A stretch of DNA of 43,760 nt from a virus (taxonomy: Duplodnaviria > Caudoviricetes): the IMG/VR virus record IMGVR_UViG_3300033485_000035, positions 1-43,760 of that record, one strand, 5' to 3'. Of this stretch, positions 15,862 through 31,610 are shown piece by piece. A program made the translations under genes and the position numbers. Within the stretch, counting starts at the first letter, position 1. The number at the start of each line of letters is the position of its first letter. The notes below the pieces were generated by a model. The model was not told the origin of the DNA and searched no databases. It saw nothing but the letters and a program-made list of their open reading frames with translations.

Positions 15862-17421
15862 CTACGTGATCGGCAGATTGACCAGGCAGGCCTCCGTCGT
15901 CTCAGTCGACTTCACAGTTTTCTGGAAGTCCCCGCGCCACCAGCAGTACATCATCGACTGATCCCACCACGAGAAGCGCTCGCGCTCGCTCGTCATGCCC
16001 CGGAAGTTGCCGAGGATGTAGCGGGTCTTGTCGAAGAGGATGACCTCAGTGGTCGTCCCGGTGCCGGTGTAGCGACCTGTCGTGGCCAGGTCCTCTCGCA
16101 CGTACTCGTGCACGATGAGGCTGCGGCCAGCGATGAGGCCGACCGCTCCGGTTGCGAGCGTGGCCCGCGCACCGGCCTTGTCGAGCGTGATGAACGCGTC
16201 GGTATCCAGCACGTCCAGGTACGACTTGAGGCCGAAGATCCACATGGAATCGCTCGGCTGCAAGCCGTACCTGTTCAGCTTGCGGATCGTCGCGAACAGG
16301 TTCGTGACAGTGATTGACGCGCCCCCGCCATCGACGGTCGTGGAGTTGGCGCGCGCGAACTCGCGGAAGCCCTTCCAGGCCGTGCGGTTCGAGTACGAGC
16401 CGTCCGTCCCGTCAGCTGCGAGCACCAGGTCGGCGTCCAGCTCGGGCGAGTCGGTGTCGCCGTTGATCATCGCGTCCTCGATCGCGCGACGGATCGAGGC
16501 TGCGACCTCCTGAGCCGCGAACGGCGCGGCTGCCACGATCGACTCCTCCTCGAACTCCGTCGAGAATCCGAAGTGCCCGCGCAGCTTCTTGGCCGAGAGC
16601 GTGATGCCGCCGATCGGGTCCAGCGTCTCGTACAGGGCATTCGCGGCCTGCATGGCGGCCGTCGGGTAGCCCTTGTACGCCGTGTTCTCGGCCCAACGGC
16701 GGGCCTTGTCGATACCCGTCGTGATTGGGTACTTGTACGTTGACGTGGGCATCGGCACGGTGCGGATGTTCGGGAGCAGCGAGCCCGTCACTTCGAGGTA
16801 GCGCAGCAGCTCAGCCGACATGAGGGAGGGGATCCACTCGGTCGCGTCGGCCGTGTCGGCCGGGAACGCTCGCTTGAGGATTTCCTCGCCGAACAGCTCC
16901 TTGCGCAGCATCTCGTACTCGTACCAGAGCATGCGGGCCGCTAGGGTCTTGGCCTTCGTCGGGTGCCACCGCTGCGAGTACGGCTGTCCCGGGAGCTGCT
17001 GATTTAGGGCCGAGCCGATCACGGCTAGCTGCAGCGACAGCTCCTGGAACCGCTTCACCTTGTCGTCGACGGGCCGAGTCTGCAGCATGAAGTCGTAGAC
17101 TTCACGCACCTGCTCCTTCGTCTCGGCCACCTCCATCGCCCTACGGGCCGCACGGATGGAGTAGTCGACGGTCGGCACGAGATCGACGCGCCGGTTCGTC
17201 TGGTCCTGCTTGCTGATGGCGATCAGCTCGCGCACCAGCTCCTTCACGTGGTCGTCGTTGGCCGCCGCGTTCCTGGCCTGCTCGAAGCGCTCCATACGCT
17301 CTTCGAGGCCGGCCGCCTTGGCATCGAAATCCGCCTTGAAGCCGTTCACTGTCTCGCGGATTTCGTTCGTTTTATCGACGATCAGCTTCCTGGTCGTCTC
17401 ATCGAACTCGTTGATGGCCAT
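15862..17421 (-). CDS. Major capsid protein, HK97 fold, with long N-terminal delta/scaffold domain
   Basis: Coiled-coil N-terminus; WIPSLMSAELLR, WAEN, ITLSAKKL...IRRAIEDAMINGD; follows the protease. Confidence 0.95.
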   Translation of the reverse strand: MAINEFDETTRKLIVDKTNEIRETVNGFKADFDAKAAGLEERMERFEQARNAAANDDHVKELVRELIAISKQDQTNRRVDLVPTVDYSIRAARRAMEVAETKEQVREVYDFMLQTRPVDDKVKRFQELSLQLAVIGSALNQQLPGQPYSQRWHPTKAKTLAARMLWYEYEMLRKELFGEEILKRAFPADTADATEWIPSLMSAELLRYLEVTGSLLPNIRTVPMPTSTYKYPITTGIDKARRWAENTAYKGYPTAAMQAANALYETLDPIGGITLSAKKLRGHFGFSTEFEEESIVAAAPFAAQEVAASIRRAIEDAMINGDTDSPELDADLVLAADGTDGSYSNRTAWKGFREFARANSTTVDGGGASITVTNLFATIRKLNRYGLQPSDSMWIFGLKSYLDVLDTDAFITLDKAGARATLATGAVGLIAGRSLIVHEYVREDLATTGRYTGTGTTTEVILFDKTRYILGNFRGMTSERERFSWWDQSMMYCWWRGDFQKTVKSTETTEACLVNLPIT

Positions 17422-18231
17422 CTAGGCTCTCCCGTCCTTCCGCGAGTTATCGGCTGCCAGCGAAGCCGCCACAATCGTTTCCACAGCGCTCATCGCGGCC
17501 GCGACCTTGTCGCGGCGCGTGCGCACGAGCGCCTCAAGTCGTTCGTCCACTACCTCGGCCACGACGCGCCTTAAACGCGTCTCGTCCTCGAATCCAATGC
17601 CCCGCGCTTTGCGCTCGCGCGGGGGGAGCTGCCTGAGCGAACCATTGTTCCAGCGAGCCACGCGCGCAGCAGAGCGCGAGTCGAGAAGCGCGTAGGGGTT
17701 GGCCGGCACGGACACGAGAGAGATTTCCAGCAGCGACATGCGGCCGAACACGAGCTGCCCGGCATCCTGGTCGATCTTCGGCTCCTCTTCGGGCAGGAAA
17801 CCGACGGACATGGCCCGCAGGAAGCCGCGCTCAACCTGACCGGCCTTCTTGCGCGCGAACTCGTCGTCCAAGTCCATCTGCGCCTGCACATGCAGGCCGT
17901 TCTGGCGCGGATCGAAGCCACGCGTAGCGAACACGATCGCGCTGTGGTCGTGATTGAAGAGGCCAACCGGGTTCCTCATGTAGGCGTCCATGCTCGGCAC
18001 GAAGCCCGAGACGGGCAACACCCACCGATCGTGGTCGGGGTCGATCGTCGACGCGTACCCCGAGAACGTGCCGCCCCAGCTCGCGTCGAACGGGAAGCCC
18101 CGCTCGGCCGGCGCTTCGACGGCACCCGAGGCCACGCGAATCGACAAGGCCTGCATCAGCTCGTCGACGATGAGGTTGGCGCTGCGGGCGCTCTTCAGGT
18201 CGGGCACCCAACGGGTCAGGCGGTCTGCCAT
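17422..18231 (-). CDS. HK97-family prohead protease
   Basis: FSGYAST, NPVGLFNHDH, GFLRAMSVGF, LLEISLVSVPANPYA. Confidence 0.95.
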   Translation of the reverse strand: MADRLTRWVPDLKSARSANLIVDELMQALSIRVASGAVEAPAERGFPFDASWGGTFSGYASTIDPDHDRWVLPVSGFVPSMDAYMRNPVGLFNHDHSAIVFATRGFDPRQNGLHVQAQMDLDDEFARKKAGQVERGFLRAMSVGFLPEEEPKIDQDAGQLVFGRMSLLEISLVSVPANPYALLDSRSAARVARWNNGSLRQLPPRERKARGIGFEDETRLRRVVAEVVDERLEALVRTRRDKVAAAMSAVETIVAASLAADNSRKDGRA

Positions 18232-18893
18232 TCCTGGTACCTCTCTCTCGATCCGTCCTGCCAGGGGCCGAACTGCGCTGTCGACAGCGAGCGGCGCACG
18301 GTGATCAGCGGCCGGCGCAGCATGTGGACTCGGATGCTCGGGTTGGCCACGTACTTTATGAAGAAGTCGAAGTGCTCGCCGTGCGAGATCATGGGGTCGA
18401 AGAGCACGCGCAGTGCCCGCTCCGTGCGCACCGCGTAGGACACGTTCGGCACGATCAGCTTGGCGCGTGTCGGGGCCTCAAGCAGCTTGGCCCGCGTATC
18501 GGCGTCGAACGGCACGTGATTGTAGGAGCCGCTGCCGTCCTCGAAGAAGTGCTCGCCGTAGTAGAGGTCGGCCTCCTTCGCGTCCTGCAGGTCGGCCCAG
18601 GCCGTAGGAAGCATCAGGTCGTCGGCATCTATGAACAGGCACCACTCGAAGCCGGCCGCGTCGGCCGCTCTGATTCCGATGTTGCGCGCCTCGCTGCGGC
18701 CAACGGGGTCGTCGGTCGTGATCACGGCCACGCGATCTCGCTCGTCCTCGAACTGCGGCGCGGGCGGGCTCTGCTGCGCGCCGTCGTAGACGACGACGTG
18801 CAGCGGGAAGGCCGTCGTCGACGCGACGGCATCGCTCACGTGCAGGCGGTGCGGCCCGCGCGCCACAGGCGTGATGACGGCGATTCGGCGCAT
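18216..18893 (-). CDS. Glycosyltransferase family 2 (GT-A fold)
   Basis: IAVITPV, VVVYDG, GRSEARNIGI, FIDADD (DxD), GEHFDF. Confidence 0.88.
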   Translation of the reverse strand: MRRIAVITPVARGPHRLHVSDAVASTTAFPLHVVVYDGAQQSPPAPQFEDERDRVAVITTDDPVGRSEARNIGIRAADAAGFEWCLFIDADDLMLPTAWADLQDAKEADLYYGEHFFEDGSGSYNHVPFDADTRAKLLEAPTRAKLIVPNVSYAVRTERALRVLFDPMISHGEHFDFFIKYVANPSIRVHMLRRPLITVRRSLSTAQFGPWQDGSRERYQEWQTA

Positions 18894-19635: not shown

Positions 19636-21930
19636 CTACTCCTCCTCGCTGCTGCCCGTCTCGGACAGTCCTTCGACAACCGGCACCAGAGTGCAGCGGC
19701 AGTTGATCACTTCGCTGGCCGGCCCCATCGGGTCGCCTGGAAACTGCAGCTGGCAGCGGCGACCCTGATCGTCTACTAAGTCGAACAAGTCGTCGGCCGC
19801 ACGCACCTGGCCATCAGCGCGCGCATGCGACGGGCGCACGAACGCGTCGTGCGACGACAGCCATTCCATCTTCTCGACGCCGGCCTGACGGAAGCCTTCG
19901 AGCGTGCCCGAGTTGGCCGCCGAGATCGCCTCTGTGCGCGCGATGCGCTCTGCGCGCATCGTTCCAACCTCATCGCGTATGCGCTCGGTCAGCTCGTCAA
20001 GGCCGAGGCCTGACTCGCTGAGAGTGGCGCGCAGGCCGTCGAGCAAGCTGTCGGTGACACGGACCATGCGCTCGGTGTCGCGTTCGACGAGGCCAAGCAG
20101 CTCAGGCGCTCCGTCGTCGAACGTCACCATCTTCCCGACCTGCTGCGCGATGCTTTTCGCTGCCTCTTCTCCGAAGCGCGCTACGACGGCCTGGTAGATG
20201 CGGCCGTGTCCGTCAACGGCCTCCGCGATCAGCTCGTTTGGATCGGGCAGGTAGAACGAAGCATCGAGGGGCAGCAGCTCGCGCACGGCTTTCGTGCCGA
20301 CCTCCGGCGTCGGCGGGTGCGCAGTGAGGCGGCGCACGATGTAGGCCGCGAGATCGGAGAACAGGCTATCCCAATACGAGTGGAGCTCTCGCTCGGCCGC
20401 GCGCAAGCGACGATCGAAGCCGCGCCAGGAGGCTTTGCGCCGCCTGGCCCGCTCGGTGAGGGGGACGATCTCAGCATCGAGGATGCCGCGAGCCGCACGC
20501 CTGTCCTGCGTAGCGGAGGCCGCAGCGCGTTCTTGGCTCGCATCGGCATCCTCGACGTTGTCAGCCTCGTCCCCCTCGGGCGCGGGCGGGGGCTCGCCCG
20601 GGCCACCCCCCGCGTTTGGCATGATGATGGGCGGGGGTGGCGGCTCGGGCGGCTCAAGCATCTGGTCGACGGGCATCAGAGAACTCATTACGTAATGCGT
20701 GTCGCCGCCCTCGTACGTGTCGCGGCCTTCCTCTGCAAGGATCTCGTTCGGCGTGCGCAGGGCGAAGGAGATCAGCTTGGTCTGCCGATCTACCTTCGCG
20801 TTCTCGTCCTCCTGCAGGGCCTGCACGCCGCTCAGGTCGATGGAGAAGTAGAGGCCCGGCCGGCGCGGATCGGTGCTCGGCGCGACACGAGTGGCGATCG
20901 TACGGTTGACGGCTCCCTCGACGCGGGCCACGAGCGGCTTCTGCAGGTTCGTCCAGTACGTGCGATCCTGCATCTCGACCTGGGCGTAGTTGGCATTCTT
21001 GAAGTCACCGGCCACAGCGGGCGGCGTCGTATTCGCGGCCAGGATCTCTTCGCGGATGAGGCGCATCAGGGACTCGAAGCCGAGGTCCTTGTGCGAGGCC
21101 TCCCAGGGCTTGAGCTTGAGGCCCTTGTCGAAGAGCAGCACGCTCCACGCCTTCTCTTCGCCCTCGACTTGACTCACAATCTGCTCAAGCAGGCGGCCGA
21201 ACGATGCGTCGTCCAAGTCCTCGTCAGTCTCGGCGATGGCACTTGGCCGAGCGCCCTTCTTGAAAAAGCGGGCGTTCCACTTCGTGGCCTTGTACATCGT
21301 GTCTAGCAGCAACATGATCGGAGACTGAGGGGAGAGGCCGAAGGCGATCGGGTTCTCGGGATCGAAGAGGGAGAAGAATGCTACGGACTCACGCGGGAAT
21401 CTGCGCTCGATGCCGCCCAGCGTCGTGTACTTCCATTCCTTGATAACGTCGCTCGGTGTGAGGACGGGATCGAGGCGGTGGGGCAGTAGGGGCCACATTT
21501 CGACGACAGGCCCCTGCAGGTTCGGCGTGAGCGTTTCGAGCAACGAGCCGGCTGAGCCGGCCGTGTACAGGTACGTGACCTGTGACTCCATCCACTCCTG
21601 GTAGCCCATGAGCAGATTGGGCCGAGAGAGGAGCGAGGAGAGCGGGTTGTCCTCGGGAGCCTCGGGGTCCTCAGGCTTGGGGCCCGTGCGAACCTTGAAG
21701 GGGAGGCCGGAGAGATCGCGGGCAATGCGGGAGACGGCCGAGTAGACCCAGCCGATGTTCTTGTAGGCCTGAATGCCCCACAGGCGGTGATCGTTCCCGG
21801 TCTGGAACGTCGAGGTATCGAGGACCTGTCGATCGCCGCGAGCCGCTGTGGCCGTGATGCGGCGAACGTGAGGCATCCGGCCATTGCCGGTGTTCGCCAG
21901 CTCGAACCGATCTACCGAGACGGCCACCAA
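19636..21930 (-). CDS. HK97-family portal protein fused to an SPP1 gp7 / Mu gpF-like head morphogenesis domain
   Basis: Portal motifs WVYSAVSRIA, NARFFKKGARPS, ANYA, TPNEI. A Pro/acidic linker is followed by RAERIARTE, EWLSSHD..VRPSH and FPGDP..PASEVINCRC. Confidence 0.92.
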   Translation of the reverse strand: MVAVSVDRFELANTGNGRMPHVRRITATAARGDRQVLDTSTFQTGNDHRLWGIQAYKNIGWVYSAVSRIARDLSGLPFKVRTGPKPEDPEAPEDNPLSSLLSRPNLLMGYQEWMESQVTYLYTAGSAGSLLETLTPNLQGPVVEMWPLLPHRLDPVLTPSDVIKEWKYTTLGGIERRFPRESVAFFSLFDPENPIAFGLSPQSPIMLLLDTMYKATKWNARFFKKGARPSAIAETDEDLDDASFGRLLEQIVSQVEGEEKAWSVLLFDKGLKLKPWEASHKDLGFESLMRLIREEILAANTTPPAVAGDFKNANYAQVEMQDRTYWTNLQKPLVARVEGAVNRTIATRVAPSTDPRRPGLYFSIDLSGVQALQEDENAKVDRQTKLISFALRTPNEILAEEGRDTYEGGDTHYVMSSLMPVDQMLEPPEPPPPPIIMPNAGGGPGEPPPAPEGDEADNVEDADASQERAAASATQDRRAARGILDAEIVPLTERARRRKASWRGFDRRLRAAERELHSYWDSLFSDLAAYIVRRLTAHPPTPEVGTKAVRELLPLDASFYLPDPNELIAEAVDGHGRIYQAVVARFGEEAAKSIAQQVGKMVTFDDGAPELLGLVERDTERMVRVTDSLLDGLRATLSESGLGLDELTERIRDEVGTMRAERIARTEAISAANSGTLEGFRQAGVEKMEWLSSHDAFVRPSHARADGQVRAADDLFDLVDDQGRRCQLQFPGDPMGPASEVINCRCTLVPVVEGLSETGSSEEE

Positions 21931-22018: not shown

Positions 22019-23515
22019 TTACCGGACAGCCTGCAGCAGGCGAACCCGATGCTCCGAGAGGAGCGTCGTGGCCCGGGCGGCGTAGGCCAGCGCGTCGACC
22101 TGGTCGTCGTGGGTGCCGGTCGGGAAGTGCACCAGCTCGTCGATCAGGTCGGCTAGCCAAGGGGCAGCCTCGGGTACGAAGAAGTCTCCGGCCGCCATCA
22201 TCGCCTCTAAAGGCATGGCACGAGTGACTTTATCTCCTCGCGCCTCGATCGGCCTGATCTTGATGCCCTGAATCCGGCGCTTGCCTTCCTGCACGAAGGC
22301 GGCCTGGTAGGCGGTAGCCTCGACGCCGATCCAGTCGAGCCGGTGCATGAGGCCGACGGCCCGGGCCTGCTCGATCTGATTCGAGAACTCAAGGCGCTGC
22401 CGGTGAACGTCGAGCAGGAGCAGGCGCGGGCGCACCCACAGGAAGGCGGCCGTCACGGTGTAATCGGCCGTCGTCTTGAGCGAGATAGCCAGGTCCATCG
22501 TGCCGAACCGGATGCCCGAGGAGAAGGCTACGCGGCGCTCCACGCCCGAATCGTCGAGCACGTAGCAGCCGGCATCCCGGTCGATGCGGTAAAAGCGCAG
22601 GTACCCAGCCTTGAGGATGCCGCCCTCAAGGGGCTGCGGCCGCTGCCGGTACTGGCCGTTCCAGACGGTCGGCCCGCGCTCGGTTCGGATGGCTTTCAGC
22701 ACGTGGGCTGGCCAGCGCTCGGGCCACAGCGCTTCCCCCTCCGCCCGGCCCAGCGCGTCGTCGGGCGACTCGGCCAGGGCGGGCAAGTCGATGATCTCGA
22801 TGCGGCGGCCCGTCTCCTTGGCCTGCCTGATCGTGCGGCCGATCGGGTCGTCCTCGTGCCAGCGACTCATCACGAGCACGGCCGAGGCACGAGGCTCAAG
22901 GCGGGTCATGAAGGTGCCGTTCCACTCCTGCCAGACCTTCTCGCGGGTGGCTGGCGAGTTGGCCTCCTCCCAGTTTTTCAGCAGGTCGTCACCGACGAGG
23001 AACTTGGCCCCCCGGCCCGCCGCGCCCGACGTGATCCCGACGGCGCGCAGGCCGCCGCCGCGCGTGGTCTGGAACTCGCGCTTCGTTTGCATCGTCGGCC
23101 GAAGCGTGAGGCCTAGCGTCTGGCCGTGCTCGGCGATCGTCGCGATGCACTTGCCACTCCACACTTCGGCCAGGTCGTCGGCGTAGCTCGTGAGGATGAT
23201 CGGCCAGTCGGGAAAGACGGAGAGCAGCCAAACGATCATCCAATGGGAGATCAGCTCACTCTTGCCGTGCCTCACCGGCATCTGGACGATCAGCAGGCTG
23301 TTCGGCGTTAGAGCCGTTGCCATTAGACGGCGGCTCAAGAAGTCGAGATGCCTCGCCCGCACCCACTTGCCACCCGACAAGACCTGGGCCATCGAGGCCG
23401 GCGTCAAGCGCCAAGCGATCGGCAGCAGCGTTTGCGAGTTGGCTGGCGAGATCGAGGGCGACGGGGTCGGCCGCGAACTGCTGGACAAGGATCGAGATTT
23501 GCGTGGCCTTGTCAT
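22019..23515 (-). CDS. terL: Terminase large subunit (Terminase_6-type); true start may be 23392
   Basis: Walker A MPVRHGKSE, GRGAKFLVGDD, MSRWHEDD, QYRQRP; nuclease motifs DLAIS..TADYT and FPTGTHDDQVDA. Confidence 0.95.
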   Translation of the reverse strand: MTRPRKSRSLSSSSRPTPSPSISPANSQTLLPIAWRLTPASMAQVLSGGKWVRARHLDFLSRRLMATALTPNSLLIVQMPVRHGKSELISHWMIVWLLSVFPDWPIILTSYADDLAEVWSGKCIATIAEHGQTLGLTLRPTMQTKREFQTTRGGGLRAVGITSGAAGRGAKFLVGDDLLKNWEEANSPATREKVWQEWNGTFMTRLEPRASAVLVMSRWHEDDPIGRTIRQAKETGRRIEIIDLPALAESPDDALGRAEGEALWPERWPAHVLKAIRTERGPTVWNGQYRQRPQPLEGGILKAGYLRFYRIDRDAGCYVLDDSGVERRVAFSSGIRFGTMDLAISLKTTADYTVTAAFLWVRPRLLLLDVHRQRLEFSNQIEQARAVGLMHRLDWIGVEATAYQAAFVQEGKRRIQGIKIRPIEARGDKVTRAMPLEAMMAAGDFFVPEAAPWLADLIDELVHFPTGTHDDQVDALAYAARATTLLSEHRVRLLQAVR

Positions 23516-23891
23516 TCCCGCTCCCTTCGACCACGTAGTTGCGCGGTACCTCTAGGCCGGGCACAAGCCGGCAGCGGCGCTCGCTGATTCGCAACGCGCG
23601 GTCGATCGCGTCGAGTGCGCCTTGCTGCACGGCCGGCCAGATGGCGAACAGCATGCGATCGAGGCGCAGTAGCTCGACGACGCGCAGCTCTTCGGCTGCC
23701 TCAAGCGGGATCGTGTCGACCTCGTTGCTCACGGCCGTTGCGCACGTCTTGGCGCTCTTGTACCCGGTGGCCTCCGCGATCTGCGCGTATGGCGCGCCCG
23801 AGATGCGCATCTGCACGGCCCGCGCGCGCTGCAAGGCCCAGTTGACTCGACGTGGGCTCGTTTTCGATTCACCTATGCCTTGTCCCATCAC
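23256..23891 (-). CDS. terS: Terminase small subunit
   Basis: HTH RAVQMRISGAPYAQIAEATGY; ELLRLDRML..IWP..G...AIDRALRISERRCRL.G; precedes terL. Confidence 0.85.
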   Translation of the reverse strand: MMGQGIGESKTSPRRVNWALQRARAVQMRISGAPYAQIAEATGYKSAKTCATAVSNEVDTIPLEAAEELRVVELLRLDRMLFAIWPAVQQGALDAIDRALRISERRCRLVPGLEVPRNYVVEGSGNDKATQISILVQQFAADPVALDLASQLANAAADRLALDAGLDGPGLVGWQVGAGEASRLLEPPSNGNGSNAEQPADRPDAGEARQE

Positions 23892-24490
23892 ACGGTCCCC
23901 ACGCTGCAGAGCCAGTTACGCGCCGGGTCGCCCCCGAGACGCGACGGCTGCTCGGCCGCGAGATCAGAGATCGGTTGCAGGCCTCGCGCGTGCACGACGC
24001 GCACGCTGCCCTGGTCGTTCCAGTTTTCCGGCCAGGACCACTTCTCGAACGAGCCTCGATTGATCCAGCCGACGAGCTGCACCCAGCGGCCCTCGGGTTG
24101 CTCGGGCATGGCGATCGCTAGCACGGCCAGGTCGGCGCGCATCGGCTTGTCGTCTCGGAAGAAGAGGCACGTGGCCGCGCCGAAGTCGCGGTCGCGCGTG
24201 CGCACCTCGACCGTGTAGGGCTCGCCCCACTGGCCGAGGATGATCGTATCGTAGTGCCGATCTCCGTCGTGCCGGTAGTCGCGCTGCAGGCGGCCGCCGC
24301 TGTACCTGCAGAATGCGATCTCGCCGGCCGCGCCGTCAATGTGGCACGCGAGCGCCGTCTTGCGTCCCGATCGGTGGAGTTGCTTCGACACTAGACCGAT
24401 GCGGTTCCTCTGTCTTGCCAGCTCGTGGGCCATTTCACAATCGCTTCCGTCGAGCCAGACGCGCTCACGTATTGGCGCTTTACTGCCCAT
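23888..24490 (-). CDS. Putative PD-(D/E)xK nuclease-fold protein
   Basis: GGAG RBS; GAAGEIAF...D.HYD...VEVRT...LVGWI. Confidence 0.55.
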   Translation of the reverse strand: MGSKAPIRERVWLDGSDCEMAHELARQRNRIGLVSKQLHRSGRKTALACHIDGAAGEIAFCRYSGGRLQRDYRHDGDRHYDTIILGQWGEPYTVEVRTRDRDFGAATCLFFRDDKPMRADLAVLAIAMPEQPEGRWVQLVGWINRGSFEKWSWPENWNDQGSVRVVHARGLQPISDLAAEQPSRLGGDPARNWLCSVGTV

Positions 24491-24590
24491 ACGACTCTCC
24501 CTCCTGACGGATCGGTTCCGGCCTCGTACAGCGCGGCCTGGCCGCAGTAGGCCACGTCCATCCAAATCGAATCGCAGTCCAACCTGAGCC

Positions 24591-24845
24591 TCATGCCTCG
24601 TCTCCGTTGATGAACGAGTCCTCGATCTGCCGCCTGATAGCTTCGGCTGCGTCGCGCATCAGGAAGGCCTCGAACGACTCGGGGCCGATCGACTCGGCGC
24701 TCACAGTGACGGCCGAGCGAAAACGCGCGGCCTCGAAGCCCACGAACCGATGCACTGCGGTCGGCGCAGCGGCGGCCAGCGTTTCGAGCGCCTTCCCGGC
24801 GAACGGGAGCGCGAACAGCGCGGCCATGAAGCGCCGACGATCCAT
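24591..24845 (-). CDS. 84-aa protein with twin-arginine-like leader and capsid spine-helix-like C-terminus
   Basis: TGATG-coupled to folE; MDRRRFMAALFALPFAG; IRRQIEDSFINGD versus MCP IRRAIEDAMINGD. Confidence 0.75.
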   Translation of the reverse strand: MDRRRFMAALFALPFAGKALETLAAAAPTAVHRFVGFEAARFRSAVTVSAESIGPESFEAFLMRDAAEAIRRQIEDSFINGDEA

Positions 24846-25420
24846 CAGTCCGTCTCCCTGTCGAGCGCGAAGAACTCGCGGCGCACTTGCGGCTCCCTGA
24901 ACAAGCCGAGCAGAGAGCTGGTCACCATCTCCCCCCGCGCCTTGATCCCCCTCGCGCCCATGCACGTATGATGCGCGCGCACGATCACCCCGACCCCCTG
25001 CGGATCGAGCGCTTGCATCATATCTCCTGCGATCTCTCTGGTCATCCGTTCTTGGAGCTGCAGTCGGCGGGCGTGGGCATCGACGAGCCGGGCCATCTTG
25101 GAGAGGCCCACTACGAGCCCGTCCTTGCCCGGCAGATAGGCCACTGAGGCCGTGCCATGAAAGGGCATCAGGTGGTGCTCGCAGAGCGAGTAGAACGGGA
25201 CCCGGCAGAGCGCTATCATCTCGTCGGCCCGCTCGTGGAACCGGGCCGCGCGTAGCATCGCAGCCGTGTCGATCTCGACGCCTCGCGTCATCTCGCGCAG
25301 AGCCTCGATGAAACGGCGCGGCGTGTCGGCTAGGCCTTCGCGCGTTGGGTCCTCGCCCAAGTGCCTGAGCACGTAGCGCACCGCGCTGCCGACCGCATCT
25401 CTCTGCCGAGCGGGGTCCAT
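24845..25420 (-). CDS. folE: GTP cyclohydrolase I
   Basis: GEDPTREGLADTPRR, FYSLCEHH, GLSKMAR, RLQLQER, HTCMGARG. Confidence 0.96.
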   Translation of the reverse strand: MDPARQRDAVGSAVRYVLRHLGEDPTREGLADTPRRFIEALREMTRGVEIDTAAMLRAARFHERADEMIALCRVPFYSLCEHHLMPFHGTASVAYLPGKDGLVVGLSKMARLVDAHARRLQLQERMTREIAGDMMQALDPQGVGVIVRAHHTCMGARGIKARGEMVTSSLLGLFREPQVRREFFALDRETD

Positions 25421-25422
25421 AG

Positions 25423-26067
25423 CTACCGCACGCCGATCCACTTGTGGGTCTGCAGAGAGAGACGCCATGAGGGGTTCTCCGTGATGAGGCCCAGGCACCA
25501 GTGCACGGCGCGCGGGTCCAGCTCTGGGCCATCGAACGCGGGCGAGATGAGGTAGTGCTCGGCCAGAATCTGCGTCTTGGGCAGCCCCTGCCCGTACGCG
25601 CGGACGTACTTGGCCTCGTGCGCCCGCGTCTGCCTTATCGAGTGCTCGGCCGTCTTGGGTGACACGGTGATCCAGTCGATGGGCAGTGCTTCGCCGGCCT
25701 CGTCGACTAGGGCCACCGTGCCGTTCGTCTCGATGGCCACAGAGAAACCGAGTGCGTGCAGGCCGTCGAGCAAGCGCCGATCGACTTGGAGCGCGGGCTC
25801 GCCGCCCGTCAGGCAGACCCACTCGATGCGGCCGCCCAGGCGCTGCCTCTCCTCGGCCACCTCGTGCAACAGCTCGGCCAGCGACAGCTCTCGCCCGCTC
25901 GTGAACTCGCTGTCGCAGTCGAAGCCCTGCGGGCTGTCCTTGGAGCACGCGAGGTTGCAGCCCGCGAAGCGCACGAAGAGATGCGCGAGGCCGGCATGCA
26001 AGCCCTCACCTTGCACGGACCCGAACACTTCGTTCACGTGGTACAGGCCGGCTTCGTGGTGCCTCAT
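25423..26067 (-). CDS. queE: 7-carboxy-7-deazaguanine synthase (radical SAM)
   Basis: EVFGSVQGEG, FVRFAGCNLAC...CD, LTGGEP.LQ, IETNG, VSPK, WRLSLQTHK. Confidence 0.95.
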   Translation of the reverse strand: MRHHEAGLYHVNEVFGSVQGEGLHAGLAHLFVRFAGCNLACSKDSPQGFDCDSEFTSGRELSLAELLHEVAEERQRLGGRIEWVCLTGGEPALQVDRRLLDGLHALGFSVAIETNGTVALVDEAGEALPIDWITVSPKTAEHSIRQTRAHEAKYVRAYGQGLPKTQILAEHYLISPAFDGPELDPRAVHWCLGLITENPSWRLSLQTHKWIGVR

Positions 26068-26498
26068 TTCTTGGCCCTCGCTTTGGCCCGCGCACGCCGG
26101 GCCGCGTTGAACTTCCGATACTTCACGCGGCAGGGCAGGCAGATCACGTGCCGGCCGTCCGTTCTCGCGCAGCAGTAAATGCAGAGGCCTGCATCGCGCC
26201 GAGCCTGCTCGCGGGCCTGCTGCGTCTCTCTCTCTTGAACGATGCACTTCGCGCACTTGTAGCGGCTGCCTCGTGCGAGAGGCCGGCCGCACCTGCATCG
26301 GCCCGAGCTGTTCAGCCGGCGCCTCATTTCCTTCGATGATTCTTTCGGGTGAGGCCCGAGCATGCGTGCGGCCTTCACGAAGTGCTCGCGGCGAGGCATC
26401 CTGCTGTCTCCGCTTCCCTTCACCCACTCAACGAACGCGAAGGCGCGGGCCAGGTCCATCCTCGCTCTCCTGTATGCGCGAAAGAACGGCGTGGCCAT
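26064..26498 (-). CDS. Basic Cys-rich (Zn-finger) hypothetical protein
   Basis: CRCG...CAKC and CIYC...CLPC; ATGA-coupled to queE. Confidence 0.65.
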   Translation of the reverse strand: MATPFFRAYRRARMDLARAFAFVEWVKGSGDSRMPRREHFVKAARMLGPHPKESSKEMRRRLNSSGRCRCGRPLARGSRYKCAKCIVQERETQQAREQARRDAGLCIYCCARTDGRHVICLPCRVKYRKFNAARRARAKARAKK

Positions 26499-26499
26499 C

Positions 26500-26781
26500 T
26501 CACGACACGTAGGGCTGCATGATGGCCTGCAGCTTGAGCGCGCCGCGCAGCTTGGCCAGGTAGTACACGGAACGCACCTGCGTGAGCGTGGCCCTCTCGG
26601 CCATCTGAATCAGCTTGGCCTTGTTGCTCATGTCGCTCGCGGCCTTGGCCTTGCCCATCATCTCTCGTTTCAGCTCGCGCCACTCGTCGTTGATCTCCCA
26701 CAGCAGCGCGTACAGGTCGGCATGCTCGTCGGCCGCATCGCGTGCCCGGCCGACTAGGTCGCTCGGGGTTCTCTTGCTCAT
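26500..26781 (-). CDS. Hypothetical helical protein
   Basis: GGAGG RBS; ATGA overlap with the upstream gene. Confidence 0.65.
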   Translation of the reverse strand: MSKRTPSDLVGRARDAADEHADLYALLWEINDEWRELKREMMGKAKAASDMSNKAKLIQMAERATLTQVRSVYYLAKLRGALKLQAIMQPYVS

Positions 26782-27014
26782 CGGTAGATCCTCCGTAAAA
26801 CATCGACCGTGAAGAGGCCCAGGCGCGCATGGAGCGGCCAGGGCGGGGATACCAGCTTGCCGCCAAGGCCGTGCCAGACGCCCAGCTCAGCAGCGAATAC
26901 GATGCGATAGCGCCAGCGCTTGGCCGCGTAGTGCAGTCCGAACAGAGCAGCGAGGATCAAGCCCGCGCGGAGCGCGTCGGGCGCGATGATCCACGTCCAC
27001 CAGGGCTCGTTCAC
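26778..27014 (-). CDS. Small membrane protein
   Basis: GTGA overlap start; TM segment AGLILAALFGLHYA. Confidence 0.55.
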   Translation of the reverse strand: MNEPWWTWIIAPDALRAGLILAALFGLHYAAKRWRYRIVFAAELGVWHGLGGKLVSPPWPLHARLGLFTVDVLRRIYR

Positions 27015-27142
27015 CGCATCTTCCCCATGCCGCAGTCGCGGACGAGCAGCACGAGGCCAAGGATGATCCCCGCTGCCCACAGCAAGGTGACGATCAGCGA
27101 TCCGATCTTGTCGTTCATCAGCGATCCGATCTTGTCGTTCAT
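27011..27142 (-). CDS. 43-aa membrane peptide with duplicated N-terminus
   Basis: GGGGGAG RBS; MNDKIGSL-MNDKIGSL followed by one TM helix. Confidence 0.55.
   Translation of the reverse strand: MNDKIGSLMNDKIGSLIVTLLWAAGIILGLVLLVRDCGMGKMR
27095..27142. repeat. Perfect 24-bp tandem duplication
   Basis: CAGCGATCCGATCTTGTCGTTCAT x2. Confidence 0.95.
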
Positions 27143-27399
27143 GACTCCCCCACGATCCGCGCCAGCGCGGCGTCGTCCATCAGAAGATTGTCCGGGGCAC
27201 TCCCGCCGCGCATCCCTTCGTACCAGTCCCGCACCTTCCGCGCGGCGTCGAGGCGGGCGTCCTCCTCGATGTGCCGCATGTACTCGTCCACCGTCTCTTG
27301 ACTCGGCCACGTCGTCTTACAAGCCGCGCACATCTCGACGTAGGCCACCTTCAGCACGCGCGGGCTTTGCTCGGCGTGACAATACGGGCAGGCGCTCAT
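27139..27399 (-). CDS. Zn-ribbon hypothetical protein
   Basis: MSACPYC...CAAC; ATGA overlaps at both ends. Confidence 0.6.
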   Translation of the reverse strand: MSACPYCHAEQSPRVLKVAYVEMCAACKTTWPSQETVDEYMRHIEEDARLDAARKVRDWYEGMRGGSAPDNLLMDDAALARIVGES

Positions 27400-27872
27400 T
27401 CCTCGCCTCTCCCTTCGCTGACCTCCGCGTAGCAGTTTTCCGTCTCCCACAGGCGCACGCGAACGACGCGCACGCCCTGGCCGGGCTCGAACAGGCCCAG
27501 CCCTTCGCGTAACAGCTCGGGGCCGAGACGCAGTAGATGCTCGGCCATGCCCTCGGCTGTCGGCTGGCCCTTGGGCATCACCCACACTTTCTCCATCGGG
27601 TAGCCTGCGTGCAGGAGGCCGTACGTTTCGAGCAACGGATCGTTGGCCGAGAGAATCAGCTTGTGATCCCAGTTGGCCTCGATCCACTCGCCGTACCGGG
27701 CTTTGAGGACGCCGAAGTCGACGACGCGAGTGAGGCGGTCGAGATGATCGACGGCCGCGACGACGAGGGCCACGTAGTTATGGCCGTGCAGCCAGTTGCA
27801 CTTCGACTCGTGGCCGTAGATTCGATGGCCGGCGCAGAACTGGAAGCGCCGGGCCACGCGGGTCGTGCTCAT
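27396..27872 (-). CDS. queD: 6-carboxy-tetrahydropterin synthase
   Basis: FCAGHRI.GH..KC..LHGHNY, DFG.LK, WDH, PTAE, LWETENCYA. Confidence 0.95.
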   Translation of the reverse strand: MSTTRVARRFQFCAGHRIYGHESKCNWLHGHNYVALVVAAVDHLDRLTRVVDFGVLKARYGEWIEANWDHKLILSANDPLLETYGLLHAGYPMEKVWVMPKGQPTAEGMAEHLLRLGPELLREGLGLFEPGQGVRVVRVRLWETENCYAEVSEGRGEE

Positions 27873-28834
27873 GGGGCCTCCTGGGCGACCTCGTACAGGT
27901 ACTCGCGGAGCGTGCTGGTCGCGTTCTTGTTCGACGACGCGCGGCCCGCGATGCGCAAGCCCGAGAAGAGCGCGGCCTCGACGGCCTCTATCTCGTCGTC
28001 CACGCTCTGGTAGGCCACGAGGACGCGGCACTTGCGGGCCAGCAAGCGCATGATCGTGGTGCGCATGAACTCGCGGAACCGGGCCTCGCCCACAGCGTAC
28101 TCGGCCGGCATCGGCTGCGGCCTCTGCCGAAGCACGCTCATCAGCGTCACGGCATAGAACCCGTAGGCTTGCTCGTTCGTCTTGTGGCGACCCTTGGGCG
28201 TAGGCCAGGCCGGGTCCCAATACACGAGCGCGCCAGCCGCTCGCTCGAAGAACTGCTCGGGCGGGTTGAGGTAGTCGACGGCCCAATGGGCCACGCCGTC
28301 GGGCAGCGGCATGATGAAGCGCTCGATGCGGCGCAGGTGCCTGAGCACTTCGCGCTTGAGCGTGGCCGTGTCCATGTCGCGGGTGCCAAGGAAGCACGAG
28401 TACATGGGCGCACGTTGAGTGATCGCGGCCGCGAGGCCGAGCAGAGCGAAAGAGCTGCCTCGATGCGTAGCGCAGTAAGCGTCGATGAACGCGGCCGTGT
28501 CGGGCCTGAACTCGCGGGCCAGCTTGGGCGACTGCGAGACGAACCCGGGCTTGGGTTGCACGTACTCGACGAGGGCCTTGATCGCGGCCTCCGTGTGACG
28601 CGGCCCGTATAGGGCCTCCGCGATCAAGTGCGGGTACGGGCTCACGTCATTCAAGACGAGCGAGCGGGTGCCGTATCGGTGCACGAAGTGGCTAGCCACA
28701 GAGCCGCCGCCGGCCGTCATGTCGACGAAGCGCGGCACTCGCGCCCGGCCAAGCAGCGAGCAGAACAGGTGCAGGTACGGGGCCTTGTTGCCCAGGTACG
28801 GCACGCTGAAATGCTTGGGCGCGGCGGCCGTCAT
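27869..28834 (-). CDS. Dam/D12-class DNA amino-methyltransferase-like protein with atypical motif IV (DPAW)
   Basis: PYLGNK, FVDMTAGGGSV, LNDVS, LVYWDPAW, REYLY. Confidence 0.8.
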   Translation of the reverse strand: MTAAAPKHFSVPYLGNKAPYLHLFCSLLGRARVPRFVDMTAGGGSVASHFVHRYGTRSLVLNDVSPYPHLIAEALYGPRHTEAAIKALVEYVQPKPGFVSQSPKLAREFRPDTAAFIDAYCATHRGSSFALLGLAAAITQRAPMYSCFLGTRDMDTATLKREVLRHLRRIERFIMPLPDGVAHWAVDYLNPPEQFFERAAGALVYWDPAWPTPKGRHKTNEQAYGFYAVTLMSVLRQRPQPMPAEYAVGEARFREFMRTTIMRLLARKCRVLVAYQSVDDEIEAVEAALFSGLRIAGRASSNKNATSTLREYLYEVAQEAP

Positions 28835-29580
28835 CGCAGCTCGCTCCCCTGCTGCTGGGCCAGGTACTGAGGCCAGAGGTGAGACTTGCGCGGCGGCTTG
28901 AGGTAGCGCGTGGGATCGCGCTTACCGAGCAGGTGCCAGGCCACAGCGCGTTCGACGCACTTGTAGCACAGGCCGCAGTGCACGGCCGAGTCGGCCAGGC
29001 AGTTAGTCGTCAGGCCCATGATCTTGCGGCCCATCGTCGAGAGGCCTAGCTCGAGGCGGTCCTTCTTGAAGCGTGCTGGCCGGCCGAAGTCCGAGAGCGT
29101 GAGCAGGCGGTAGGCCGGCCCCCACTCGTGCCACAGGTACGCGACGAGGGCGCGCGTGTCGGCATCGGCGGCCGCGACGTGATCCTGCACCACCCACGTG
29201 TCAGCGCCCACGTACTCGCCCATGCCGATCGTGCCGGCCGGTCCGCAGCAGCGCGTGATCACGTAGTCGATCAGGTAGCGGTTGCGGCGGGGGATCTCGC
29301 CCTTGGCCGTGAAGGCCGAGAGATCGAGGCCGTCATAGGCCATGTAGTTGTAGAGCAGGCGGCGCTGGGCCGGCAACGCGCGCTGAATCTCGGCCCATAT
29401 GCGCTCGCGCGCGCGGGCCTCGCGGGCCGCCATGCGCGGGGCCGAGATAGAGTAGAACGGCACGGAGATGACCTGGGCCGGGATGCCGGCCTCGATCATC
29501 AGGCCGATGAGGGCGGTCGAGTCGATGCCGCCCGACCAGAGCACGTAGGGCGTATGGCCGCCACGCCAGAGCCGCTTCAC
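28831..29580 (-). CDS. queC: QueC-like PP-loop ATPase (7-cyano-7-deazaguanine synthase family, divergent)
   Basis: WSGGIDST, IPRRN, C-x7-CGLCYKC..R, DPTRY. Confidence 0.82.
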   Translation of the reverse strand: MKRLWRGGHTPYVLWSGGIDSTALIGLMIEAGIPAQVISVPFYSISAPRMAAREARARERIWAEIQRALPAQRRLLYNYMAYDGLDLSAFTAKGEIPRRNRYLIDYVITRCCGPAGTIGMGEYVGADTWVVQDHVAAADADTRALVAYLWHEWGPAYRLLTLSDFGRPARFKKDRLELGLSTMGRKIMGLTTNCLADSAVHCGLCYKCVERAVAWHLLGKRDPTRYLKPPRKSHLWPQYLAQQQGSELR

Positions 29581-30176
29581 AGCTCGGCCTCCTCGAGGTC
29601 AGCGTAGCGTGGCTTGATCGGCCGGCGCACGGCGGTCAGCTCGCGCGCTAGAACCCAATCGTCGAAGCGCGAGCACTTGGGCACGGCCGTCGAGAAGCGC
29701 TTGCGCGCGACGACGTGCGAGCCTGCGCCCATGTCCTTCAGCCGCTCGGCCAGCGAGACGTCGCCCGAGCCGAGGCCGGTCACGATGATGCGGGCCGCGA
29801 AGAGCAAGGCCGCGTGGCAGGCCCGGCGCACGAACTGCCGTTCGTCCTCGGCCGACCATCGGCGCGCGAAGTCGGGTGCCGATTCGGGGAACAGCGGCCG
29901 GCCGTCCACGATCGTCGGAGTGCCGAGGTACATAGCCTCGACGCCCCGGTACAGCTCGGGCTCTGCGATCGTCAGCCAACCGAAGCGCGAGAGGGCCGAG
30001 AGGAGGGCCGGTGAGGCACCGCACGGCAGCCAGATCACGGCCGGCTTGGTACGGGGCGGTCCAAGCGCTGCGATGATCTCAGGCCAGATCAGGGACTGCC
30101 CACCCGGGTGATCGTCGACAAGGCCCAAGGCCGCCCGCAAGAGGTCAGGGTTGAGGAGTTGCTTCGTTGATCGCAC
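29577..30176 (-). CDS. Hypothetical protein, probable degenerate Dam-like Rossmann fold
   Basis: HPGGQSLI (~YPGGK), IWLPCGAS (~EPFAGS) and AMYLGTP (~VYLDPP) occur in alpha-class order. Confidence 0.55.
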   Translation of the reverse strand: MRSTKQLLNPDLLRAALGLVDDHPGGQSLIWPEIIAALGPPRTKPAVIWLPCGASPALLSALSRFGWLTIAEPELYRGVEAMYLGTPTIVDGRPLFPESAPDFARRWSAEDERQFVRRACHAALLFAARIIVTGLGSGDVSLAERLKDMGAGSHVVARKRFSTAVPKCSRFDDWVLARELTAVRRPIKPRYADLEEAEL

Positions 30177-30981
30177 GTCTCGCCTCGATGGCCTCCATGA
30201 CGGGGCGCCACTTCTCGCGCGCCCGCGCTTCGAGGCTCAGGTAGTAGTTGAACTCGGCCCGCAGGTTTTGGCTCGAACCGCGCAGGCTCATCTTGCCGAA
30301 GGCGCGCCAGTTTCCAGAGCGACACGGCCCGGCCTCCCAGCTCGTCGCGTCGACAGAGTGCCAGGGGTAGGCCATGAGCATGCGCTCCGTCGCCGTGCCG
30401 AAGCCGTGCACACGCGTCGGCCCCGCTGCGCGCCAGATGCGGGAGAAGCAGGCGGCCACGTACTCGTACTTAGCCTCGCCGCGCAGGTCGGCCATGCCGC
30501 CGATCGCGATCTTCGGGTAGTCGCGCGCGAGCGCTTCGAGCTGCGCCCAAGGCTCGTGGCGATGGAAGGCGGGGACGGCCTTGACGCCTGCAGCCCACAT
30601 GGCCTCGGCGTTCTTGATCGAAGCCCGCCAGTCGCCGATCACGTCGAGCGCGAACACGTCGACGAGCGTGGGATCAACGGCCAGGATGCGCTTGGCCACG
30701 TCGATGTACTCGGCCAGCTCGATACGGATGCCCCGAGAACGGGCCGAGAACGCGCCCGAGTCGAGCGCCCAATCTCGGTACGCGTACAGGTGTTGGCCGT
30801 TGAGCCAGTGCCTGAGGTAGACGAACGAGATGAGGAGGCCCGGGTAAAGCAGCGGCCCCGAGTCGATCTTGTCGCGGCGGTTCGGGTAGCGTCGAGCGCC
30901 CCCCGGCGCAGGCCCGAAGAGAGCGCCGAACGCGGCCAGCCGCAGCGTTGGCGGCCCGAGCTTTTCAGCCGCCTGCGTCAT
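30145..30981 (-). CDS. dpdA: DNA deazaguanine transglycosylase (TGT family)
   Basis: LLISF, LDSGAFS, LDVIGD, PAFH, IAIGG, VHGFG, HSVDATSW; clustered with que/fol genes. Confidence 0.9.
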   Translation of the reverse strand: MTQAAEKLGPPTLRLAAFGALFGPAPGGARRYPNRRDKIDSGPLLYPGLLISFVYLRHWLNGQHLYAYRDWALDSGAFSARSRGIRIELAEYIDVAKRILAVDPTLVDVFALDVIGDWRASIKNAEAMWAAGVKAVPAFHRHEPWAQLEALARDYPKIAIGGMADLRGEAKYEYVAACFSRIWRAAGPTRVHGFGTATERMLMAYPWHSVDATSWEAGPCRSGNWRAFGKMSLRGSSQNLRAEFNYYLSLEARAREKWRPVMEAIEARRAINEATPQP

Positions 30982-31610
30982 GCGGCCGTCGTGGGTGTGA
31001 AAGCCTGCACGTAATAGAGGCACACGGCCGTGATGGCGTCGGCATCGCTAAGGCCAGGCTTCGAAGCGCGGGCACGCGCGATGGCCTCAACGAAGATCGC
31101 GTACTGGTCGGCGTTCAGCTTGGGCATGACGTGGTGGCCAAAGTCGGCCATCTTCTGCTCCTCAGCGCTGGGGTCTACGGCCGGCGGCTGCCAGTCAGCC
31201 GTGACGAGCGGGTTGATCACGTAGTCGGGCCAAACGAGCTTGTGCACGGCGGCCTCGTCAGTCTCGAGGATCTTGAATAGCTGGGCCAGGATCGCCGAGT
31301 CCTGCTCGGCCATGCCGGCGAGCGGGTCAAGCGTCGCGATTGCCTCGCGCGCTTCGGCTTCGTCGAGATCGACGACGAGCACCGGCACGAGCTCTTCGGG
31401 CTCAAGCCCGGCCCGGAGGTGGCCGTCGATGATCTGCAGGTCGCCCCCGGTCGTCTCGCGCACGATCAGGGCGTCGATGAAGCCGAGCCGTTCGATCGCA
31501 GCCCGCAGCGCGGTGGCCTGCGCGGCCGGGTGCGTGCGCCAGTTGAGCGGGTGCGGCTGCAGCGAGCCGGCCTTCACGCGCAGCAGTCGAGTGATCCGAT
31601 CTCTGGCCAT
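30978..31610 (-). CDS. ParB/Srx N-terminal domain protein
   Basis: LQPHPLNWRTH, L..AI..LGFIDALIV, IIDGHLR, VPVLVVDL. Confidence 0.88.
   Translation of the reverse strand: MARDRITRLLRVKAGSLQPHPLNWRTHPAAQATALRAAIERLGFIDALIVRETTGGDLQIIDGHLRAGLEPEELVPVLVVDLDEAEAREAIATLDPLAGMAEQDSAILAQLFKILETDEAAVHKLVWPDYVINPLVTADWQPPAVDPSAEEQKMADFGHHVMPKLNADQYAIFVEAIARARASKPGLSDADAITAVCLYYVQAFTPTTAA

Follow-up and report, generated by a model that had tools for sequence, protein, structure and literature searches.

Bacterial immunity is known to respond to phage virion proteins, and both capsid and portal are described as immune triggers in the available text of PMC13581612. According to the same text, Lit and CapRel read short capsid motifs, and the target of Avs7, Avs8 and Avs10 on the folded capsid monomer is its A-domain. 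In the accessible part of PMC9712102, CapRel is modelled touching the P-domain β-sheet and the spine helix of the capsid, and escape mutations are located there. The signals of the twin-arginine (Tat) pathway carry the motif S-R-R-x-F-L-K, and the signal peptide is summarised as RR-x-F, a basic residue and A-x-A in the available portion of PMC6708511. Here we describe a phage mini-gene, P0001, which very probably consists of a twin-arginine-type leader joined to a capsid-derived tail.

The window, i.e. the whole stretch of 43,760 nt that was analysed, is a complete virus record with direct terminal repeats. All genes annotated in it are located on the minus strand, in the order YqaJ/RecT recombination, putative modification cluster, terminase, portal, protease, HK97 capsid and tail genes. 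P0001 is flanked by folE on one side and by the packaging genes on the other. The features required below are the following.

24591..24845, minus strand: mini-gene P0001, 84 aa, twin-arginine-type leader and capsid-derived tail (ORF, homology)
24768..24845, minus strand: leader, codons 1-26 (sequence; identity to the leader of phage G001; dN/dS)
24600..24743, minus strand: capsid-homologous segment, residues 35-82, mapping to own-capsid residues 273-322 (profile, tree)
24854..24859, minus strand: ribosome-binding-like site AGGGAG, 8 nt before the mini-gene ATG and within the end of folE (sequence)
24845..25468, minus strand: folE-like GTP cyclohydrolase, upstream (Pfam GTP_cyclohydroI, E=2.7e-59)
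23256..24490, minus strand: 200-aa gene and probable small terminase, downstream, leading to terL, portal, protease and capsid (weak HTH match, position)
26778..27014, minus strand: small hydrophobic EPWW gene, marker of the locus common with G001 (tblastn 49% over 78 aa, E=1e-7)
15862..17421, minus strand: own major capsid protein, HK97 fold, 519 aa, with a long helical N-terminal region (profile, AlphaFold model, Foldseek)
16456..16605, minus strand: capsid-gene segment homologous to the mini-protein tail, capsid residues 273-322 (16 of 50 aligned residues identical)

The phage also possesses folE, queE-like, queD, queC-like and tgt-like genes at 24845-31023 (-), together with a weak D12-class methyltransferase match. 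We take this cluster to be a 7-deazaguanine DNA-modification module; no match to it was found in G001. The portal, encoded at 19636-21930 (-), carries a fused MuF-like domain. The gene separating portal from prohead protease codes for a family-2 glycosyltransferase (18216-18893, -), found with 54% identity at the same place in L098; glycosylation of the capsid by this enzyme is possible.

The first-pass annotation had proposed an 84-aa ORF at 24845..24591 (-), which was confirmed; its product is MDRRRFMAALFALPFAG...IRRQIEDSFINGDEA. P0001 looks like a maintained phage gene and not debris, as that annotation had held, judging from the AGGGAG site, the coding-frame bias and the low dN/dS of the leader. 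The mini-gene frame scored best of the six, with 0.47 bits/codon, and the tail alone reached 0.45. The claimed coupling on both sides stood only in part. Upstream, the ATG of the mini-gene overlaps the folE stop (TGATG). Downstream, the mini-gene stop overlaps the ATG of a 67-aa ORF (ATGA; 24391-24594, -), but this partner scored just 0.07 bits/codon compared to 0.47, and overlaps by 100 nt the next gene, the 200-aa one, which has a strong ribosome site and a PHROG match. Because the 67-aa ORF shows almost no coding bias and overlaps a better-supported gene, it is a doubtful gene, and the downstream coupling may be to a non-gene. The small-terminase label of the gene beyond is probable, from position and the weak HTH match. 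Transcription before the head genes, also asserted previously, comes down to gene order, since the promoter scan remained at chance level (one found against 1.0 expected). The mini-gene is presumably expressed together with its neighbouring genes.

The leader consists of MDRRRF, twelve uncharged residues counted from Phe6, Lys18 and an Ala-rich end, with A-x-A sites at 24-26 and 25-27. Its D-R-R-R-F-M-A agrees with the Tat motif in the two arginines and the Phe, and differs at the Ser, Leu and Lys positions. The best 19-residue Kyte-Doolittle mean is 1.38. P0001 gave no match to the Tat-signal HMMs PF10518 at E<=0.5 or TIGR01409 at E<=1; its relative P0005 matched TIGR01409 below the cut-off (E=0.065). 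The earlier description as a Tat-like leader is borne out for RRxF; the uncharged core is short, with 12 residues. From its sequence, the leader appears Tat-like but atypical; it would presumably engage Tat, and stalling at the membrane seems as plausible as export.

Selection on the leader can be read from G001, a phage that has terL, portal, protease, capsid (38%) and tail genes in common with the window, and whose protein P0004 carries the same leader. The two leaders are 84% identical over 86 nt. Codons 2-25 differ by nine synonymous and three non-synonymous changes (Fisher p=0.0003), and dN/dS is 0.09 for these codons and 0.16 up to codon 28. By this comparison the leader is under purifying selection. 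The proposed dN/dS check thus covers the leader; no DNA locus of P0005 was found in viral contigs.

Sequence comparison shows that residues 35-82 of P0001 share ancestry with the strand-plus-spine-helix element of an HK97-fold capsid. The tail comprises a strand (35-51), a shortened linker and the spine helix (57-82), ending INGD. The proposed profile search gave a match to Pfam Phage_capsid (PF05065) at E=0.0043, with residues 37-83 on profile positions 71-119 of 280; its score of 16.9 bits is below the gathering cut-off of 24.2. All Pfam, NCBIfam and PHROG matches of P0001 remained below curated cut-offs, and those to NCBIfam methylcobalamin methyltransferase were discarded as noise (E 0.03-0.09; cut-offs 244-400). 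A profile built from eight clade capsids gave the tail (residues 34-83) about 30.5 bits, compared to 6.2 bits for the best of 2000 shuffled tails, 1276 of which received any score. With this profile, only two capsid genes and the P0001 ORF were detected at E<1 among the 13,169 stop-to-stop ORFs of 29 phage records. The tail was also recovered (E=1.4e-7) by a profile without the own capsid and its two closest relatives.

The previously reported identity of 10/13 with the capsid gene (nt 16456-16494) was reproduced exactly. A BLASTP alignment with the own capsid spans residues 61-82 only (12/22 identical), and therefore the homology of the strand part rests on the profile and the relatives. The own capsid was modelled with AlphaFold (mean pLDDT 67), and Foldseek matched this model to the HK97 fold (best E=2.6e-16). 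In it, residues 273-322 form a long strand (E271-287), a short helix and a long helix (H298-320), in agreement with the strand-plus-helix core suggested before. We refer to helix 298-320 as the spine helix of the fold. Ahead of the HK97 fold, the N-terminal ~185 aa are all-helical in the model. The model of P0001 alone is all-helical (pLDDT 55), and the tail by itself perhaps lacks a capsid-like surface, since this low-confidence model forms no strand. Recent duplication of the own capsid gene at the DNA level was rejected: the best DNA match, located at the conserved helix end, is just 24/28 nt, and the capsid gene of G001 matches about equally (21/24).

The first-pass annotation had interpreted the tail as a mimic of the phage's own capsid, and had proposed to verify whether the fragment tracks the cognate capsid. 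The reading was not supported for the present own capsid, and the fragment did not track it. The tail scored 40.4 bits against the capsid P0012, 36.2 against P0011, 34.7 against the capsid of G001 and 27.7 against the own capsid, and over 50 aligned residues the identities were 21, 18, 17 and 16, respectively. In a tree of 33 fragments the tail falls with G001 and P0012. The AU test rejected its grouping with the own capsid and the 72-82% identical relatives of this capsid (p=0.011), with 33 rows, 53 columns, a long tail branch and a group chosen after the pairwise scores were known. The own-capsid clade has few close relatives. The sequences thus point to the tail being a sister-lineage capsid piece and no copy of the present own capsid.

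This better fit to the capsids P0012, P0011 and G001 is what a weapon against competing phages would show: the tail would slot into or cap sister capsid subunits and drag them to the membrane, and the own capsid would be spared as diverged. Two prophage-encoded assembly blockers are described, Tab in the available text of PMC10884400 and Tai in the accessible part of PMC11364771, according to which Tai genes are often upstream of the packaging module; this is also the position of P0001. Nonetheless, we regard this explanation as unlikely. Gene transfer from a G001-like phage, whose leader DNA is 84% identical, explains the sister fit equally well, the best tail match in the family test described below is usually within the same record, and no match to integrase or repressor families, which would point to a prophage stage, was found among the 43 window proteins scanned.

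P0001 homologues are few. Among 1.84 billion representatives, three were found at E<=0.001. The homologues identified are P0003, a variant of P0001 with one conservative change (E37D-type), P0004 and P0005. A profile search added P0018, weakly (E=1.1). ESM Atlas gave no usable match for P0001, and only leads under 0.9 for residues 1-88 of P0005. In GenBank phages, P0001 matched seven records at E=4, six of them annotated as capsid and none spanning the leader, and P0005 had no match; none were found in GTDB genomes. Matches in L002 and L011 to the HRFVGFE word were discarded as chance, lying in other frames with stops nearby.

In P0005, a related leader is joined to the same capsid piece, cut at identical boundaries and 42% identical; its strand and helix score 44.5 bits. 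The design of P0001 and P0005 would therefore have persisted through a long divergence or arisen twice. Monophyly of the two was neither supported nor rejected (AU p=0.40). In G001, the leader gene of P0004 lies at a linked locus and carries a different tail; it directly follows the EPWW gene, from which the mini-gene of the window is separated by four genes, queE and folE among them. The P0004 tail reached E=0.013 against the capsid-clade profile, with 5 of 200 shuffles as good, so that a stitched capsid mosaic is suggestive only. The FRIPP word of P0004 may resemble a portal motif. Beyond the capsid piece, P0005 continues with a basic tail, similar on visual inspection to the end of P0004; both proteins end arginine-rich (PSK..RR...RR.AAWRRA), as a third module. 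Origin of the mini-gene from, or its sharing with, a G001-like lineage would be the simplest history, and the leader appears to act as a slot whose tails are exchanged between related phages.

The position of P0001, on the same strand and just upstream of the terminase-portal-capsid block, and the fact that its segment is the structural core of the fold could also indicate a helper of own head assembly, i.e. a membrane-tethered capsid piece nucleating procapsids or clearing misfolded capsid. We consider such a role improbable, given that the tail does not track the own capsid and that the G001 locus has a different tail. In addition, no leader ORF was found in L098, which has a 53% identical capsid and genes back to terL, and of which 10 kb upstream are present.

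The exchange of tails under a kept leader raises another explanation, in which the function lies in the leader, through occupation of TatBC or the membrane, and the tails are tolerated passengers that recombination picked up from virion genes with strong expression. Purifying selection is demonstrated for the leader only, the tail branches are long (0.93 and 0.6 compared to a median end branch of 0.12), P0001 has lost residues of the conserved linker, and a leader ORF in G030 contains an in-frame stop. We find it rather unlikely all the same: the P0001 tail retains its frame, its coding bias and the capsid-conserved residues, P0005 has the same piece with the same boundaries, and no preference for capsid and portal cores is expected from random capture, though conserved cores are the easiest to detect.

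Following the suggestion to search viral databases for Tat-type leaders with capsid fragments, two leader DNA patterns were run against IMG/VR and retrieved 3 and 29 loci. Both patterns required RRxF, and consequently invariance of the twin arginines is not readable from the family. The family set comprised 28 records besides the window, with the last 655 bases of G019 missing. Not included were G017 (its leader protein is close to the one in G011) and the records of L020 and L038 (repeats of L014 and L021). A scripted scan detected leader ORFs in 28 of the 29 records, 32 in total and 45-260 aa in length. PF10518 matched 11 of the 29 pattern-found ORFs, always below cut-off, and strict A-x-A is absent from P0004 and from 16 of the 32 family leaders.

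Seven of the 32 tails matched a protein of at least 250 aa of their own record at E<=0.05, compared to 3 of 496 small control ORFs (p=1.6e-7); without P0001 the count is 6/31. The targets were the major head protein in five cases, the portal in one and an unannotated ORF beside the capsid gene in one, so that the search recovered own head-protein matches for five of 32 tails. The remaining 25 had no own-genome match at E<=0.05, in a set where many records are fragmentary. One of the control matches is a capsid-end motif on an ORF without leader. The tail in G024 matched a major head PHROG (E=2.3e-5).

Several loci of the set show particular arrangements. At L092:15565-15738 (-), in G029, the leader is followed by a 28-aa piece of the own portal (E=5.7e-6). 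G018 possesses two tandem leader genes (L075:13067-13662, +), one with a capsid C-terminal piece followed by an N-terminal piece, in permuted order, and the other with a piece of the gene adjoining the capsid. In G016, a 121-aa ORF without twin-arginine leader (L071:1997-2359, +) ends with a copy of the own-capsid C-terminal motif (12/19 identical). A leader subtype in L056, L070, L087 and L089 continues with DPE.LLW.PG.KLISIP, and several of these tails resemble the N-terminus of phrog_283-type coat proteins. The G030 leader ORF with the in-frame TGA (L094:16591-16797, -) had no match in its own genome; the sequence around the TGA resembles what we take to be tail-fibre C-terminal motifs.

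Together with the independent protein P0005, the ribosome site, the frame bias and the leader dN/dS, the family enrichment argues against P0001 being debris or a chance resemblance. The matches below curated cut-offs and the scarcity of homologues would fit such an origin, but the shuffle and ORF controls largely refute chance, and we judge this explanation very improbable. The literature search found no description of twin-arginine leaders fused to virion fragments in the open full texts that were the best matches of longer listings. On this basis, the family is an undescribed modular gene family, with a conserved leader and exchangeable tails.

The reading that we favour, tentatively, is that the P0001 tail is a membrane-directed decoy for host sensors of a short capsid motif. 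The leader would likely direct P0001 to the inner membrane or to the Tat machinery, where the tail would likely serve as bait for host proteins recognising such a motif. A sensor of the CapRel or Lit type could be bound without switching on, and would then be retained at the membrane, broken down or withdrawn from the cytoplasm before the real capsid accumulates. Tail homology, selection on the leader, P0005 and the family enrichment (7/32 compared to 3/496) argue for a decoy. The appeal of the first-pass annotation to capsid-sensing defences is supported for CapRel, modelled on the strand and helix element of its target capsid (PMC9712102, available text). The A-domain, target of Avs7, Avs8 and Avs10 (PMC13581612, available text), is absent from the tail.

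Against the decoy stands the tail itself, identical to the own capsid in 16/50 residues, when a sensor bait might be expected to track the own capsid. A bait could also activate the sensor, and export would place it in the wrong compartment. Moreover, there are the 25 of 32 family tails without own-genome match at E<=0.05, and the weak match of the P0004 tail.

Tat is known to co-export partner proteins as hitchhikers. The decoy could be extended to the whole family as a modular bait cassette, in which the leader carries pieces of the virion proteins watched by immunity and the sensor is pinned at the membrane or carried out by Tat, a counter-defence by eviction; at present we consider this extension quite unlikely.

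If the tails are baits, the family would be a natural map of the virion epitopes read by bacterial immunity, and a counter-defence strategy reusing protein export. If instead they poison sister phages, they would represent a novel type of assembly interference, in which the interfering protein is made out of its own target. The window adds that the leader seems to be a slot with tail exchange between related phages, and that the tail need not match the resident capsid. With an 84-aa gene and a clear null (RR to KK, tail deletion), each reading is cheap to test.

With HK97-fold capsids (PF05065, TIGR01554), P0001 shares the P-domain strand and spine helix, homologous to its residues 35-82; unlike them, P0001 holds ~48 of some 300 fold residues, lacks the A-domain, the start of the E-loop and the N-arm, and cannot form a shell. 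Similar to Tat signals (PF10518, TIGR01409), the leader has RR-x-F, together with a short hydrophobic stretch and a putative A-x-A site preceded by a basic residue, within ~26-27 residues. It differs from them in being phage-encoded, with almost no N-region, just 12 uncharged residues and no HMM match, and its cargo is a fragment without predicted fold (pLDDT 55).

Tab and Tai are likewise small accessory genes acting on virion assembly, Tai often with a similar position. They target tails, however, and in the available text of their sources they are not described as virion-protein fragments or twin-arginine-led, so that it is by description that they are set apart. CapRel-SJ46, Lit, Avs7/8/10 and type I Thoeris are candidate targets, CapRel being the one modelled on the P-domain sheet and spine helix in the available text; they are host sensors, whereas P0001 is a putative phage decoy. 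In the literature searched, no capsid-fragment decoy against CapRel, Lit, Avs7/8/10 or Thoeris was found described. None of five proteins matched the PADLOC 2023 defence-protein models at E<=0.1, a library that may lack Tai and Tab. A parallel in principle is the DNA mimic Ocr of T7, a look-alike that soaks up a defence protein (PMC12409349, available text), as proposed here for P0001. In contrast to Ocr, P0001 would act through a fragment of a phage protein that is borne on an export-type leader, with exchangeable tails.
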